Origin: an uncultured Gammaproteobacteria bacterium
Lineage (GTDB): Bacteria; Patescibacteriota; Patescibacteriia; Patescibacteriales; UBA12465
Assembly (NCBI GenBank): GCA_964472595.1
Contig: CAYYLI010000001.1
Span: 1-31,071, forward strand
Direction of reading: 5' to 3'
Length of the DNA stretch: 31,071 bases
A program made the translations under genes and the position numbers. The notes below the pieces were generated by a model. It was not told the origin of the DNA and made no database searches. It saw only the letters and a program-made list of their open reading frames with translations. The first letter of the stretch is position 1. Each line of letters starts with the position of its first letter. Below, in pieces: positions 1 through 15,328 of this stretch.

Positions 1-630
1 AGGTACTATTTCACCTCCCTCACCGGGATGCTTTTCACCTTTCCCTCACGGTACTGGTTCACTATCGATCATAAAAAGTATTTAGCCTTGGATCATAGTC
101 GACCCAGCTTCATACGGGATTTCTCGAGTCCCGCACTACTTAAGAACAATTATATTAGAGTAATATTTTTTTTACCTACCGGGCTATCACCGTCTCTGGC
201 TGAGCTTTCCAACTCATTTGGTTAAAAATATTATTTATGACTCTAACTCGTTTAATCTAAGAAACGAACACAACTGTCTTGCAACCCCCTATAAACATGT
301 GGGCTTAGACCCTTCTACAACATCTCATTCACAAAAGTAAACTCAATTATTGCGCAGTTTATAAAGTTTAGGCTCTTCCCCTTCCGCTCGCCGCTACTAA
401 GGGAATCATTATTATTATCTTTTCCTCCGGCTACTAAGATGTTTCAGTTCACCGGGTGCTCCCCCTCGCTAACGCGAGGGCATCCTGTCTTCAACAGGAT
501 AGGTTTCCCCATTCGGAAATCTACGGATCAAAGGTTGCTTGCCACCTCCCCGAAGCTTATCGCAGGCTGCTACGTCCTTCATCGTCTTTTTATGTCAAGG
601 CATCCACCATATACTCTTAACGAGATTTTC
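1..630 (-). rRNA. rrl: 23S rRNA, 5' ~630 nt (continues beyond window start)
   Basis: Reverse complement carries universal 23S domain I motifs (TAAGAGTATATGGTGGATGCCTTG, GAACTGAAACATCTTAGTAGCCGGAGGAAAAG, AGTAGCGGCGAGCG, GTGAACCAGTACCGTGAGGGAAAGG). 5' end placed by analogy to E. coli, +/- a few nt. Confidence 0.97.
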
Positions 631-671
631 TCACATTTTTGACTTTAAATTCAAAAATTTTTTGATTCTAA

Positions 672-707
672 AATTTTATTGTTGAAATTGCGTAAAACAA
701 TAAAATT
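672..707 (-). other. 12-bp perfect hairpin in pre-23S leader (possible processing stem)
   Basis: AATTTTATTGTT (672-683) / AACAATAAAATT (696-707), 12-nt loop; A/T-rich, so weak. Confidence 0.4.
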
Positions 708-811
708 GTCATTCTATTATTAAGGTTCATTTAAATATTAATTTTCAAACATCATCTAAGGATGCTGTTCGAATTTTTAATATCTAATTTTTAAAATGGC
801 AAAATGTTTTT

Positions 812-842
812 ACAAAAAGAAAAAACCGCACTAAAGCGGTCA
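812..842 (-). terminator. Intrinsic terminator-like hairpin inside the 23S leader
   Basis: Minus strand GACCGC-TTTAGT-GCGGTT followed by TTTTCTTTTTG. Confidence 0.55.
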
Positions 843-873
843 TTAAAAAAGCCCAACAAGACTTTTGACCGCT
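835..873 (-). promoter_or_regulatory. Antiterminator hairpin competing with the leader terminator
   Basis: 8-bp perfect inverted repeat 866-873 / 835-842 (AGCGGTCA/TGACCGCT) plus inner 5-bp AAAGT/GCTTT stem; uses the 5' arm of the terminator. Confidence 0.5.
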
Positions 874-937
874 AAATCTTATTAGATGAAGATTTATAAA
901 TAGTAGACACTATTTTCTTGTAAATATATTTTGTCAT
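872..937 (-). CDS. Putative 21-aa leader peptide MTKYIYKKIVSTIYKSSSNKI
   Basis: ATG about 5 nt after the predicted start site; TAG (874-872) overlaps the antiterminator 5' arm. Below the ORF-track cutoff; translation not demonstrated. Confidence 0.4.
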   Translation of the reverse strand: MTKYIYKKIVSTIYKSSSNKI

Positions 938-949
938 AGACTGGTTAGA

Positions 950-978
950 ATTATAAGGTATTTTTAAAAGTATGTCAA
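950..978 (-). promoter_or_regulatory. Consensus sigma70 promoter driving the 23S transcript
   Basis: TTGACA (978-973), 17-nt spacer, TATAAT (955-950); perfect consensus pointing at the 23S gene. Confidence 0.85.
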
Positions 979-1114
979 CACCCACAAAACCCCCGAAAAA
1001 TAAGGGAAAAATCATCAAATAATTTAGGTATTTTTTATAAACAATTTAAAATAAAATAATTTATAAAATTATATAATATTTTAAGAAAATTAAAACTAAT
1101 TTATTTATAAAAAA

Positions 1115-1984
1115 ATGAAGCGAAAAAATATTAAAAAAAATAAAATAATTTTAATAGCCCTGAGCGCTATTTTTTTATCGACCCTACTTCTCTATTCCTA
1201 TTTTTTGACATCCAGACAAAAAGAACTTCTAGTTTCTTTTATCGACTGTGGTCAAGCTGACTGTATTTTTATTAAATCTCCCAAAGGACAGCAAATAATA
1301 ATTGATTTTGGTGATAATAAAGGATTAAAAGATTTAGACAAAAGAATTGGTTGGTGGAATAAGACTATTGATTTATTAATCATAACTCACCCCCACGATG
1401 ATCATATTGCTGGCATGGTTAATATTATAAAAAAATATAAAGTAAAAAATATAATGTACACTGGAGTATTAGCCAGCTCTCCAATTTATACCGAATTATT
1501 AGAAATAATTAAACAGAAAAAAATACCCCTATTAATACCACAAAAAAACCAAACAATTTCCTTGGAGGAAAATTGCCATTTAAATATTCTATACCCTTTT
1601 GATAACTTACAAAATAAAGAAGTCGCTAATTTAAATAACAGCTCCATTGTCTCCCGACTAGAATGTTGGGGCTCTAGCTTTCTTTTTACCGGAGACGCCG
1701 AGATAGAAGCCGAAGATGAAATATTAAAACAAAATATTAATCTTAAAAGCGATGTTCTAAAAGCTGGCCACCACGGATCTATTACCTCTAATCAAGAAGA
1801 ATTTTTAGAAAAAATAGGGGCCAAAATAGCTATTGTTATGGTTGGAGAAAATAATAAATTTAATCACCCTAGTCTTCGTACTCTCAAGCGGCTGGAAAGA
1901 ATTGGGGCACAAATATTTCGCACTGACTTAAATGGGACTATTGATATTTTAAACAGAGGCCAAGGCCTAGAAATACAAAATTAA
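1115..1984 (+). CDS. ComEC/Rec2 C-terminal-type metallo-beta-lactamase-fold hydrolase (stand-alone, N-terminal membrane anchor)
   Basis: FIDCGQAD, THPHDDHIAG (HxHxDH), NNSSIV, FTGDAE, KAGHHGS, RTDLNGTI motifs; one N-terminal TM helix; no multi-TM competence domain. Confidence 0.9.
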   Translation: MKRKNIKKNKIILIALSAIFLSTLLLYSYFLTSRQKELLVSFIDCGQADCIFIKSPKGQQIIIDFGDNKGLKDLDKRIGWWNKTIDLLIITHPHDDHIAGMVNIIKKYKVKNIMYTGVLASSPIYTELLEIIKQKKIPLLIPQKNQTISLEENCHLNILYPFDNLQNKEVANLNNSSIVSRLECWGSSFLFTGDAEIEAEDEILKQNINLKSDVLKAGHHGSITSNQEEFLEKIGAKIAIVMVGENNKFNHPSLRTLKRLERIGAQIFRTDLNGTIDILNRGQGLEIQN

Positions 1985-1986
1985 AA

Positions 1987-2006
1987 ACAAGGTCACAAAA
2001 CCTTGT
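1987..2006. terminator. Hairpin between convergent comEC-like gene and pilT
   Basis: ACAAGGT-CACAAA-ACCTTGT. Confidence 0.55.
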
Positions 2007-2054
2007 CTTTAAAATATGCAAAATATTTACCAGATAAATCTAAATTTAAAAGTG

Positions 2055-3242
2055 TTAATTAAGCGCTAAATTATTATTTAAGAAATGTTGGGCTGTTTCA
2101 GAACTGATTATTTGTCTTTCATATAAATCTTTAACGCTACGTTCAAAACTAATCATACCCTCACTAGAATGAGTATTAATTACATTTTTAATTTGATTAA
2201 TTTTTTGTTCTCGAATTAAATTGGCAATAGCTGGATTATTAATTAATAATTCTCTAATAGCAGTTCGGCCACCAGAAACTTTTGGCACTAAAACTTGAGA
2301 AATAACAGCTGACAAAACCAAGGATAATTGAGACTTAATTTGATTTTGTTGATAAGGTGGAAAAACATCAATGATACGGTCAATAGTTTGAGCAGCATTA
2401 CAAGTATGCAAAGTCGCCAGCACCAAATGACCAGTTTCAGCCAAGGTAATAGCAGTTGAAATAGTTTCCAAATCACGCATTTCTCCCACCATAATAACGT
2501 TGGGATCTTGGCGTAAAACATGCTTTAAACCACTAGAGAAATTTGGCATGTCGGTTCCCAATTGTCTTTGAGTGATAACACTCTTATTAGATTTGAATAA
2601 AAATTCAATCGGATCTTCCAAAGTAACAACATTACAACTTAAATTATTATTAATATAGTCAATCATAGCAGCTAATGAAGTTGACTTTCCGCAACCAGTT
2701 GGGCCGGTAAGTAAAATTAAACCTTGTCTAGCATTTAATAAATCCTTTACTTTTTCTGGCATATCAATTTCTTCCAAGGTTGGATTTTTTTCAGGAATAA
2801 TTCTGGCCACCATTTTAAAATGACCACGTTCATAAGATAAATTTATTCTGAAACGAGCTCCATCAAATTGATGAGAAATATCATAGTCCTTCTCTTTATA
2901 AAATCTTTTTAATTGGTCCTCGTTTAATATTTCTTTAATCAATTTATGAACACTACCAGAACTAACGATTCTTTCATTTTCTTTTCCTCCTAACAAATCA
3001 TCCACATAAACAAAGGCGCCCTTCTTAGGAGCATTAGAGAATTCTTTAATACTATTTGTATTTTTTGCCTTTTTTTCTACAACAGTTAAATCCTCTCGAG
3101 CTGCCAGAGGGGCTAAATTATGAGATTCATCTAAAGTAAATAAATCTCCATCAATTCTAATCACTGGCGCCAGACCATGAACTAAATGCACGTCCGAAGC
3201 TCTATTAGCAATAGCTATTTGAAATATTTGATTAATATTCAT
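2055..3242 (-). CDS. pilT: Type IV pilus retraction ATPase PilT (with ~50-aa N-domain insertion)
   Basis: ASDVHL, Walker A GPTGCGKST, Asp box TLEDPIE, Walker B IMVGEMRD, His box TLHT, AIANLIRE (AIRNLIRE-like). Confidence 0.93.
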   Translation of the reverse strand: MNINQIFQIAIANRASDVHLVHGLAPVIRIDGDLFTLDESHNLAPLAAREDLTVVEKKAKNTNSIKEFSNAPKKGAFVYVDDLLGGKENERIVSSGSVHKLIKEILNEDQLKRFYKEKDYDISHQFDGARFRINLSYERGHFKMVARIIPEKNPTLEEIDMPEKVKDLLNARQGLILLTGPTGCGKSTSLAAMIDYINNNLSCNVVTLEDPIEFLFKSNKSVITQRQLGTDMPNFSSGLKHVLRQDPNVIMVGEMRDLETISTAITLAETGHLVLATLHTCNAAQTIDRIIDVFPPYQQNQIKSQLSLVLSAVISQVLVPKVSGGRTAIRELLINNPAIANLIREQKINQIKNVINTHSSEGMISFERSVKDLYERQIISSETAQHFLNNNLALN

Positions 3243-3279: not shown

Positions 3280-3975
3280 TTAAGACCACTGTTTAGCTTC
3301 CAATCCTTTTTCGGCTGCGCTAGTTTGAGCCTCTTGTTTGGAAGTGCCATCTCCCACAGCTACTAACTCTTCATCTAAAAACAAACCAACAGTAAATTTT
3401 TTAGCATGATCAGGACCCTCCTCTTTCAAAACTTTGTAAGAAGGGGTAATACCACAAACTTCTTGCGAAACTTCTTGAAATCTAGATTTAGGATCAACAT
3501 AAGCTTTTCTCTGAACAATATCGTCTAAATTTTTTACAATATTTTTGAAAATGAATTTTTTAGCCACTTCAATTCCCTGGTCCAAATAAATAGCCCCAAT
3601 AATAGCTTCCACACTATTGGCTAAAATATATTGACGGGCTTTGGAGTCTTTGTCGCGTGATTCGCCCTTGGATAACATTAAATGTTTTTCAAAGTTTAAT
3701 TCCTTGGCTACCTGAAATAACATTTTGGCATTAACCAAACTGGCTCGCCAATTAGTTAGTTCTCCTTCTGGTTTGTCTGGAAAATTAACATACAAAAATT
3801 CAGTAACAATAATTTCCAAAACTGCATCACCTAAAAATTCCAATCTTTCATTGTGCCCTACCTCGCAATCAGGATGCTCATTTAAATAAGAGCGGTGGGT
3901 TAGGGCTTGTTTAATTAAATCTTTATTTTTAAATTTGACGTCTATTATTTTTTCTAAGTCGTTTAATTTATACAT
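3280..3975 (-). CDS. rnc: Ribonuclease III
   Basis: NERLEFLGDAVL signature, C-terminal dsRBD (DPKSRFQE...GPDHAKKF...SKQEAQ). Confidence 0.97.
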   Translation of the reverse strand: MYKLNDLEKIIDVKFKNKDLIKQALTHRSYLNEHPDCEVGHNERLEFLGDAVLEIIVTEFLYVNFPDKPEGELTNWRASLVNAKMLFQVAKELNFEKHLMLSKGESRDKDSKARQYILANSVEAIIGAIYLDQGIEVAKKFIFKNIVKNLDDIVQRKAYVDPKSRFQEVSQEVCGITPSYKVLKEEGPDHAKKFTVGLFLDEELVAVGDGTSKQEAQTSAAEKGLEAKQWS

Positions 3976-3998: not shown

Positions 3999-4508
3999 TT
4001 ACTCTTCCTTTTTTTCAGCTGAAAGGTCTTTGGATTCAGCCTGAGAAGATTCTTCTTTTTTAGGAGTTGAAAGTTCCTCCTTTTTCTTTTTTAAATCTTC
4101 TGGCATGTCACTATATATTGAACCCAAAACTCCATTGATGAATTTGCCAGAAGAATCACCACCAAAATTTTTAGCTACTTCAATAGCTTCATTAATAGCC
4201 ACTTTTGGTGGAATTGATGTTGAAAAAACCAATTCATAAATACCTAAACGTAATACATTTCTATCAATCCCGGTAATCTGGTCTATCGGCCATTCAGGAG
4301 CATATTTTTTGATATAATTATCAATATCATCAATATGTTCTGAAATACCGCTAATTAATTCCTTTACAAAACCACCGTCATCAAAATCCGGTGCGAAATT
4401 ATCAAAATTCTCCTGCATGATCTCATCCAGGTTTTTGCTTTTTTTATTAAAATCCCATACAAACAAGGTTTGCATGGCTAATGTTCTTGATAAGTGTCTA
4501 TTTGCCAT
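3999..4508 (-). CDS. nusB: Transcription antitermination factor NusB
   Basis: [43 protein letters not shown]. Confidence 0.95.
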
Positions 4509-14770: not shown

Positions 14771-14845
14771 TGGAGCGGGTAACGGGAATTGAACCCGTCT
14801 CTCGACCTTGGCAAGGTCGCATAATAGCCACTATACGATACCCGC
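14771..14845 (-). tRNA. tRNA-Gly (GCC), CCA encoded
   Basis: GCGGGTA...CGACC-TT-GCC-AA-GGTCG...GGTTCAATTCCC...TACCCGC-T-CCA cloverleaf. Confidence 0.97.
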
Positions 14846-14850
14846 AAGTG

Positions 14851-14934
14851 TGCCGCGAGGGAGAATCGAACTCCCACGATATCGCTATCACTGGATTTTA
14901 AGTCCAGCGCGTCTACCAGTTCCGCCATCGCGGC
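14851..14934 (-). tRNA. tRNA-Leu (TAA), long variable arm, CCA not encoded
   Basis: GCCGCGA...CTGGA-CT-TAA-AA-TCCAG...GAGTTCGATTCTC...TCGCGGC-A. Confidence 0.96.
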
Positions 14935-14946
14935 ATAAAATTTAAG

Positions 14947-15328
14947 TGGAGATGACGGGAATTGAACCCGTGTCTAACAAGTTTTTTTAAATACTTTTAC
15001 AAAATTAGCTTGATTAAAGTTTAATCATTATTTTAAAAATCAAGCGAAATAAAATAATGACGATTTACCTAATCTTTTGGTTTATTAGGGGTAACGCCCA
15101 AAAAACCTATCCCTATAAATAACACCGGTTAACGGTTATAAGGAGTCACCGGACCGATGGCCGCCGCTATTTATTAAGCAGCAACAGATGCGAAAGCTGG
15201 GACTTTCCATGAGAAAGCAGCTTTAGCAATAGTGTTTTTTACACTTATGTTTTGAATGTTTTTAGGTAGACATTCTCTACCTTTTGCATATTTAAAAAGA
15301 GTCTCATTATCGAAGCCAAGTCATCCCC
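14947..15328 (-). ncRNA. ssrA: tmRNA; tag reading frame 15242-15174 = (A)VKNTIAKAAFSWKVPAFASVAA**
   Basis: 5' GGGGATGACTTGGCTTCGA, 3' T-arm GACACGGGTTCAATTCCCG-TCATCTCC-A forming an Ala-type acceptor stem with G3:U; ATAAGT before resume codon; Ala-Ala-stop-stop end; directly after smpB. Confidence 0.93.

Follow-up and report, generated by a model that had tools for sequence, protein, structure and literature searches.

The window analysed here is a stretch of 31,071 nucleotides (nt) from an uncultured member of the Patescibacteriota (contig CAYYLI010000001.1 of assembly GCA_964472595.1), and it is one whole contig of a 674-kb genome (G000) that is assembled in 86 contigs. At one end the contig is cut inside a 23S ribosomal RNA (rRNA) gene on the minus strand; the rest of the rRNA operon, including the 16S rRNA, is not assembled. 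On the upstream side, the neighbouring gene 1115-1984 (metallo-beta-lactamase fold) is divergent from the rRNA, so that the 484-nt gap between the two is a shared promoter region. Within this gap lies a leader with a promoter, a short open reading frame (ORF), and three segments (arms A, B and C) that can pair either as A:B or as B:C, the latter being a predicted intrinsic terminator. We read this element as probably, though far from certainly, a ribosome-mediated (leader-peptide) transcription attenuator heading the rRNA operon. All leader coordinates are those of the minus strand of the window, and the features concerned are the following.

978-973, minus strand: -35 hexamer TTGACA, invariant in all 15 genus sequences (alignment A1)
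955-950, minus strand: -10 hexamer TATAAT, with a 17-nt spacer to the -35 hexamer, nearly invariant in the genus (A1)
943-941, minus strand: predicted transcription start at a conserved CAGT, 7-9 nt past the -10 hexamer, placed from the spacing and the conservation of CAGT(T)
937-872, minus strand: leader ORF MTKYIYKKIVSTIYKSSSNKI, 21 codons, from the ATG at 937-935 to the TAG at 874-872
873-866, minus strand: arm A, 5' strand of the antiterminator, overlapping the stop codon, perfect complement of arm B
865-845, minus strand: apical A:B hairpin (865-859 with 854-848) leading into a U-run (850-845), from fold prediction; candidate pause site
842-835, minus strand: arm B, common to the antiterminator (with A) and the terminator (with C), its CCGC core nearly invariant across the order
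829-824, minus strand: arm C (GCGGTT), 3' strand of the terminator, pairing with GACCGC at 841-836, found by the terminator scan
825-814, minus strand: U-tract TTTTTTCTTTTT of the predicted intrinsic terminator, conserved in every element-bearing leader
1-630, minus strand: 5' part of the 23S rRNA, which runs off the contig (Rfam LSU_rRNA_bacteria, 422 bits, model positions 1-551)

An initial annotation of the window had proposed most of this layout: a perfect promoter at 978-950, a 21-codon ORF at 937-872 whose stop overlaps arm A, and the alternative pairings A:B and B:C, the second followed by a U-run. All of these parts lie where it placed them, and the same anatomy recurs in the order and in the class. 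The TTGACA-17-TATAAT at 978-950 is the single 12/12 promoter match in positions 1-3000, the terminator hairpin appears in a terminator scan, and the U-run ends about 185 nt before the 23S start at 630, in agreement with the roughly 190 nt first estimated. The inner stem of A:B, described as 5 base pairs (bp), needs correcting; it has 7 pairs when wobbles are counted. The stretch 800-945 folds 4.2 standard deviations better than shuffles. Such a layout in the window alone could arise by chance in AT-rich DNA, and it is its conservation in relatives that argues it did not. Two other identities for the element are rejected. It is not a known RNA family, as an Rfam scan of 631-1114 gives no family at the gathering score and, at a permissive threshold, a best E-value of 0.13 that lies far under the cut-off. 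Nor is it the terminator of a neighbouring gene, as the gene at 1115-1984 is divergent and no gene reads into the leader.

We compared leaders at three depths. The genus set has 14 other species with a homologous leader, giving the 15 sequences of alignment A1. The order set has 39 newly fetched 23S upstream regions from 24 families, together with 21 distinct leaders of the window's family, and the class set has 40 leaders from other orders of the class. In the genus alignment, the stretch from promoter to ORF is rich in indels, and everything from the ORF start to the U-run is free of them except in one subclade, where 3 nt are inserted between the stop and arm A. When 17 genomes of the genus, the window's among them, are searched with a covariance model of the element, each yields exactly one copy, so that further copies in the genome can be set aside. 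The same model gives nine weaker full-length matches in four other genera of the family, and for 7 of the 9 a 23S start is confirmed about 220 nt past the end of the element. The promoter is unchanged in these other-genus leaders, CAGTTT is conserved at the predicted start, and a 13-codon ATG frame has its stop 5-7 nt inside arm A. The element is present in 34/39 of the newly fetched order leaders, which brings the total to 55 of the 60 distinct order leaders. The typical layout in the order is TTGACA-16-TATAAT, an ATG frame, arm A, arm B (AACCGC), arm C (GCGG), and six to eight U residues; arm A is usually GCGGTT within AGC GGT TAA, and a promoter match of at least 11/12 is found in every order leader examined. 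In the class, at least 22/40 leaders have an ORF of 12-14 codons that ends 24-39 nt before a CCGC/GCGG terminator.

Two variations are of note. In the family f16 (leaders L085 and L086), arm A is GCAG or CCAG, not GCGG, and the 13-codon frame is kept; the pairing of the antiterminator there seems to be shifted in register, onto the 5' arm and the loop of the terminator. In 17/40 of the class leaders (L128-L167), the DnaA-box word TTATCCACA, exact or one-off, occurs on the sense strand; in most cases it lies after the rRNA promoter and before the leader ORF. The word is found in 2/62 order leaders and is absent from the window.

Both helices are supported by compensatory changes. In the genus, A:B is paired in 96.9% of alignment cells, with 15 cells changed on both sides, and slid controls are 37-57% paired. 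In the order (alignment A3), A:B is 86.5% paired with 21 cells changed on both sides, and slid controls are 27-52% paired. The A:B covariation score is reached by 0/500 shuffles, in genus and order alike. The terminator helix B:C is 100% paired in the genus and too invariant there to covary. In the order it is 93.4% paired (slid controls 25-62%), and four pairs have compensatory changes, again with 0/500 shuffles reaching the score. Examples are TCGC/GCGA, CCGT/ACGG, and an apical pair that is U-A, C-G or G-C. Because both helices show compensatory changes, both of the mutually exclusive structures must be under selection. The check suggested with the initial annotation, conservation of the ORF and covariation in A:B and B:C among relatives, thus comes out in its favour.

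Fold predictions for the 55 element-bearing order leaders describe how the two helices compete. As to stability, the medians are -13.8 kcal/mol (A..B) and -8.8 kcal/mol (B..C). For a transcript that ends at B, A:B is the lowest-energy fold in 51/55 leaders. Once C is included in the free RNA, B is predicted to pair with A in 34 leaders and with C in 20. The switch is thus, according to these predictions, finely balanced, and since 20 of the leaders prefer B:C at equilibrium, the advantage of the antiterminator would be largely kinetic, in that it forms first. When a ribosome footprint from 15 nt before to 12 nt after the first stop base is masked, B pairs with C in 52/55 leaders. The proposal that a ribosome at the stop would hide A fits these modelled folds. 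The geometry of the ORF agrees with it as well; in the window the stop overlaps A, and in 41/52 relatives it is found at position +5 or +7 of that arm. Between A and B, a T-run of at least four is present in 47/55 leaders, against 21.9 expected from shuffles, and starts about 18 nt past A; GGC often precedes it in the apical region of A:B. This U-run may pause the polymerase so that a ribosome can catch up.

The leader ORF is conserved in its position and extent. An ATG ORF of 11-15 codons is present in 52 of the 55 element-bearing order leaders. Over all 55, the 13-codon form accounts for 35, the 11-codon form for 11, all in the window's genus, and the 21-codon form for 3, the window's clade. 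The first base of the stop is at +5 relative to arm A in 36 of the 52, at +7 in 5, and at -2 to -5 in the other 11. The distance from ATG to hairpin is fixed (34-35 nt), and the distance from the -10 hexamer to the ATG varies from 12 to 86 nt. When the upstream sequence is shuffled with arm and stop kept, a comparable ORF arises in 2.7% of trials per leader. No comparable ORF is found in another frame in the 52 leaders, and the two other frames of the same spans have stops at 102/606 and 85/606 codons. Related leaders are not independent, and we claim no formal probability for these counts. Within the genus, 12 species have an ATG that gives 11 codons (MFIKFLLSNKN for example), in the window's frame and with the same TAG as its stop. 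That usual ATG is missing from the window and its two closest relatives, which have an in-frame ATG 12 nt past the -10 hexamer instead. The resulting 21-codon frame, itself a derived form, and its ATG are common to the window, G004 and G003, the last of which retains the frame through a compensated -1/+1 indel. The 11-codon form is the derived form of the genus, where the frame has shifted by 1 nt and has a new stop.

What the ORF encodes has changed greatly. The interior of the frame is almost fully diverged (0.2-0.7 bits per position), and the ATG, the length, the openness and the stop position are kept. The most conserved part of the peptide is C-terminal, with K at codon 9 in 21/31 and then S-G before the stop. 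The S-G is encoded by arm A (AGC GGT), and it may therefore be conserved as RNA. The stop codons are of all three kinds (TAA 29, TAG 18, TGA 5). Conservation inside the ORF has no three-base periodicity, so we reject a constraint on the peptide, and the case for translation rests on ATG, stop, length and openness. Translation as such, rather than the peptide, appears from these sequence comparisons to be what is selected. The peptide of the window was said to have no single-amino-acid run beyond SSS, and we find this to hold generally, with no amino-acid run that could serve as regulatory codons in any of the 55 leader peptides. It follows that the element is not an attenuator of the amino-acid-operon type and would sense something else. 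Lack of a Shine-Dalgarno motif in front of the ATG, which we considered as an argument against translation of the ORF, was dropped. The motif is absent upstream of 22/22 long ORFs of the window, and the 16S rRNA of a relative ends in CCUCC; the organism seems to initiate translation without Shine-Dalgarno pairing, and the A/T-rich start context of the leader ORF is normal here.

Downstream, the leader heads a whole operon. The initial annotation spoke of a stand-alone 23S gene, which the comparison with relatives does not support. In three genomes of the same genus, 23S, 5S and 16S follow one another on one strand (L035:772-5645 in G020, and contigs L031 and L037), and in the window it is only the contig that stops within the 23S. 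The relative G020 is complete, and in it the 16S starts 147 nt after the 5S, with no terminator between them and only 10/12 promoter-like matches. The leader thus heads a permuted operon, in an order first reported for SR1 bacteria (PMC4192840). Its upstream promoter is the sole 11-12/12 position conserved in 23 family-level leaders. A second promoter for the 23S downstream of 812 would have undercut the attenuator, and we find no conserved one past the terminator in the 23 family leaders; the matches there are at background level and at no fixed position, and 6/23 of the leaders have no match of at least 9/12 in that interval. A second conserved rRNA promoter is therefore rejected.

Between the terminator and the mature 23S, and elsewhere in the window, we note the following further features.

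787-773, minus strand: genus-conserved motif TTAGATATTAAAAAT (word TTAGATnTTAAAAAT) just past the terminator (alignment A1)
769-746, minus strand: hairpin ahead of boxA, at the place of a boxB; compensatory changes can be picked out by eye in A1
728-716, minus strand: boxA-like element GAACCTTAATAAT between terminator and 23S
707-672, minus strand: 12-bp hairpin with loop word GCAATTTC, the loop invariant in 15 species and the stem changes compensated (A1)
641-628, minus strand: 5' strand of the processing stem of the 23S, CAAAAATGTGAGAA, matched in G020 by the complementary 3' flank TTCTCACATTTTTG of that gene
990-1007, minus strand: small G+C hairpin (TCCCTT...CGGGGG) adjoining the -35 box, a terminator-like match in the scan
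14771-15328, minus strand: transfer-messenger RNA (tmRNA) gene with a tag peptide ending in ...FASVAA, and directly after it tRNA-Leu(UAA) and tRNA-Gly(GCC)

The motif at 787-773 falls in a weak promoter-like match (9/12, 802-773); the -35 of this match lacks conservation, and the motif is no conserved promoter. The boxA-like element at 728-716 resembles the boxA of the E. coli rrn operons. The boxA consensus GAACTTTAACAAT is found, with at most 3 mismatches, between the terminator and the 23S in 58/62 leaders, and a protein of the NusB family is encoded about 3 kb upstream of the leader (3999-4508). Together, boxA word and Nus factor suggest that a boxA/Nus system is probably present alongside the attenuator. 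Because boxA is downstream of the terminator, the attenuation decision would precede assembly of an antitermination complex. The processing stem at 641-628, which pairs with the 3' flank of the 23S, means that arms A, B and C are not processing elements, and we reject them as the 23S processing stem. Of the neighbours, NusB, RNase III (3280-3975) and a PilT-like ATPase (2055-3242) stand in a row on the rRNA strand, immediately upstream of the divergent gene; two of the three are factors of rRNA transcription and processing that are thus encoded beside the rRNA operon. The hairpin beside the -35 box, which may be an insulator or a binding site, is found at the same place in relatives with another sequence, both in A1 and in leaders of the wider family.

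The mechanism that we propose is as follows. Transcription would begin at the single consensus promoter, and the nascent leader would carry the short ORF, whose stop overlaps arm A in the window; most relatives have it 5-7 nt inside that arm. If no ribosome arrives in time, A would pair with B once B has been made, C would stay single-stranded, and RNA polymerase would continue through boxA into the rRNA genes. If a ribosome does arrive in time, it would translate the ORF and come to rest on the stop, where its footprint would hide A and leave B to pair with C. The resulting B:C hairpin, with 4-6 pairs and U-pairing extensions followed by the U-run, would act as an intrinsic terminator, and the terminated transcript would end about 125-130 nt from the start. 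Plentiful, fast ribosomes would thus lower rRNA synthesis, scarce or stalled ones would raise it, and the net effect would be a negative feedback of translational capacity on rRNA transcription. The conservation pattern suggests that translating ribosomes throttle rRNA synthesis directly. That a whole class of Patescibacteria controls its single rRNA operon in this way, by a cis-acting ribosome feedback through a leader frame of about 13 codons, is a reading to which we give slightly less than even odds.

Several observations weigh against a ribosome-mediated attenuator, some in general and some for the window in particular. A recognisable copy of the element is absent from 5/39 order leaders and from many class leaders; it is dispensable in some lineages. 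The terminator stems are short (-6 to -12 kcal/mol), and the antiterminator is not the favoured fold at equilibrium in the 20/55 leaders that already prefer B:C as free RNA. The missing codon periodicity counts here too. The window's own clade is the weakest case for the ORF; the usual ATG is gone, the 21-codon form occurs only in three close genomes, and in the window the ATG is predicted to come about 5 nt into the transcript, in a frame that stays open for a long way upstream in any case. There are possible ways around the terminator. In G007 (leader L006) a TTGCCA-18-TATAAT matching at 11/12 lies directly past the terminator, about 173 nt before the 23S, and may bypass the attenuator in that species; in the window, the 9/12 match at 802-773 is a possible bypass promoter. 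A RelA/SpoT homologue is present in the window's genome and in four relatives, so conventional rRNA control may also exist. This leads us to reject the idea that the attenuator replaces a missing stringent response; it would add to other rRNA controls, not replace them. For transcripts, the comparison is with low-depth assembled contigs of RNA libraries. The window sequence occurs in DNA runs from wastewater, sludge and bioreactor samples, and part of it in two metatranscriptomes. One error-free RNA-library contig of 247 nt (depth 3.3) spans 719-965 and with it the ORF, the hairpins, the U-run and boxA. It bridges the terminator, its ends are unmapped, and it could also come from DNA or from other transcripts; it also reaches 22 nt upstream of the predicted start, which misfits that start. 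RNA-library contigs of this organism over 989-1300 were not found. The contig is compatible with a read-through precursor.

Four other explanations have to be weighed against a sensor of translational capacity, and each leaves part of the conservation pattern unexplained. The closest keeps the ORF-coupled switch and gives it a specific input, such as an antibiotic, a small molecule sensed by the peptide, a charged tRNA, or a release or initiation factor. The conserved C-terminal part of the peptide (K at codon 9, S-G) would suit such an input, and known translation-sensing attenuators do answer stalled ribosomes, as in vmlR (PMC9226507) and the topAI upstream ORF (PMC12121999). The S-G, however, is the translation of arm A, single-amino-acid runs are missing, all three stop codons serve, and the genus has changed both the frame and the end of the peptide with the switch retained; we find this input unlikely. 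A protein or RNA factor could instead set the switch by binding arm A or the apex of A:B (a ribosomal protein or a Nus-type factor, for example), the ORF being untranslated. An untranslated ORF would account for the lack of codon periodicity, and the conserved features at the apex of A:B (the U-run, often with GGC before it) would offer a site. It gives no reason for the fixed distance from ATG to A in 52/52 leaders, for a stop that is always at or inside A, for a frame kept open where the other frames have 14-17% stops, or for the compensated frameshifts, and we hold it to be improbable.

The two remaining explanations dispense with regulation by a switch at this site. Leaders of rRNA act in folding and processing, and the hairpins could be constitutive parts of the precursor, for its folding, processing or stability, or form a fixed partial terminator that does no more than set how much rRNA is transcribed. 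The RNA contig that bridges the terminator, by which read-through molecules may exist, and the 20 leaders that favour B:C at equilibrium are what such a leader would lead one to expect. Yet processing has a stem of its own, between 641-628 and the 3' flank of the 23S, compensatory change has kept both of two mutually exclusive helices, and a fixed throttle needs no conserved ORF ending on the shared switch strand. We give a constitutive leader little credence. A separate tiny gene, for a 13-residue peptide or a small RNA, with the rRNA transcribed from another promoter downstream, would draw on the 11/12 promoter past the terminator in G007 and the 9/12 match at 802-773 in the window. Against it, downstream matches in the family are at background level and unfixed in position, or missing altogether in 6/23 leaders, the peptide sequence is hardly conserved, and a promoter of the greatest possible strength would drive no more than 13 codons beside the most transcribed genes of the cell. 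It is the least probable of the four, and we would be very surprised if it were correct. A ribosome-mediated attenuator remains the explanation that we prefer.

In model bacteria, rRNA synthesis is matched to translational need at promoter initiation, through guanosine tetraphosphate (ppGpp), nucleoside triphosphates (NTPs) and DksA. Leader-peptide attenuation is itself a known kind of control, and its application to the rRNA operon is new as far as we could find; full-text searches of the literature turned up no paper that describes a leader-ORF attenuator for rRNA genes. The element is shared across an order and a large part of a class; these bacteria are ultra-small and uncultivated and have one rRNA operon each. 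If the proposed mechanism is right, the ribosome would be both sensor and product in a one-step homeostatic loop, and a long-hypothesised ribosome feedback loop would be realised as a leader-peptide attenuator. For practical purposes, the element shows where rRNA transcription units really begin in these genomes, and at about 130 nt it could, if it works as proposed, serve as a synthetic sensor of translational capacity.

The nearest relatives in mechanism are the leader-peptide attenuators of the trp, his, leu, thr, pheA and ilv operons of enteric bacteria, in which the position of the ribosome picks the hairpin. What the element has in common with the trp/his class is a short ORF near the promoter, an intrinsic terminator ahead of the structural genes, and a second hairpin built on one of the terminator's strands; in both, a ribosome that reaches the stop favours termination, or would do so here. 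It differs from that class in that the targets are rRNAs, not biosynthetic enzymes, in having no regulatory codon run, and in that the presumed signal is translational capacity and not one charged tRNA. It has three pairing segments, not four, and as a consequence an untranslated leader would read through, with no super-attenuation.

A second group of attenuators responds to ribosomes that slow or stall, among them those of the antibiotic-resistance genes erm and bmrCD. To this group also belong vmlR (PMC9226507) and msrD (10.1101/2021.11.29.470318), which like the element here have a short leader ORF. The logic would be the same, in that slowing or stalling of the ribosome keeps the antiterminator free to form and so turns transcription on. 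For vmlR, polymerase pausing is reported to contribute to the mechanism (PMC9226507). Stalling attenuators control resistance factors through drug-specific stall sites, and here the target is an rRNA operon and no stall motif is evident; the genes downstream of the leader are those of the 23S, 5S and 16S rRNA, and thus no resistance determinant.

Two further systems concern rRNA itself. Antitermination by boxA and the Nus factors (PMC4807359, PMC10250234) also takes place in the rRNA leader, and the window has a boxA-like word and a NusB gene nearby. That system acts on the elongating polymerase after the attenuator, and without an ORF or alternative hairpins; it is a neighbour of the attenuator. 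The other is the ribosome feedback model, which Nomura and co-workers reportedly developed in the 1980s and in which excess translational capacity lowers rRNA synthesis. In E. coli, the feedback effect was later traced to control of promoter initiation by NTPs and ppGpp, not to a leader ORF with a terminator. The model as an account of rRNA control is discussed in PMC2320978. The logic that we propose for the attenuator is the same feedback logic.

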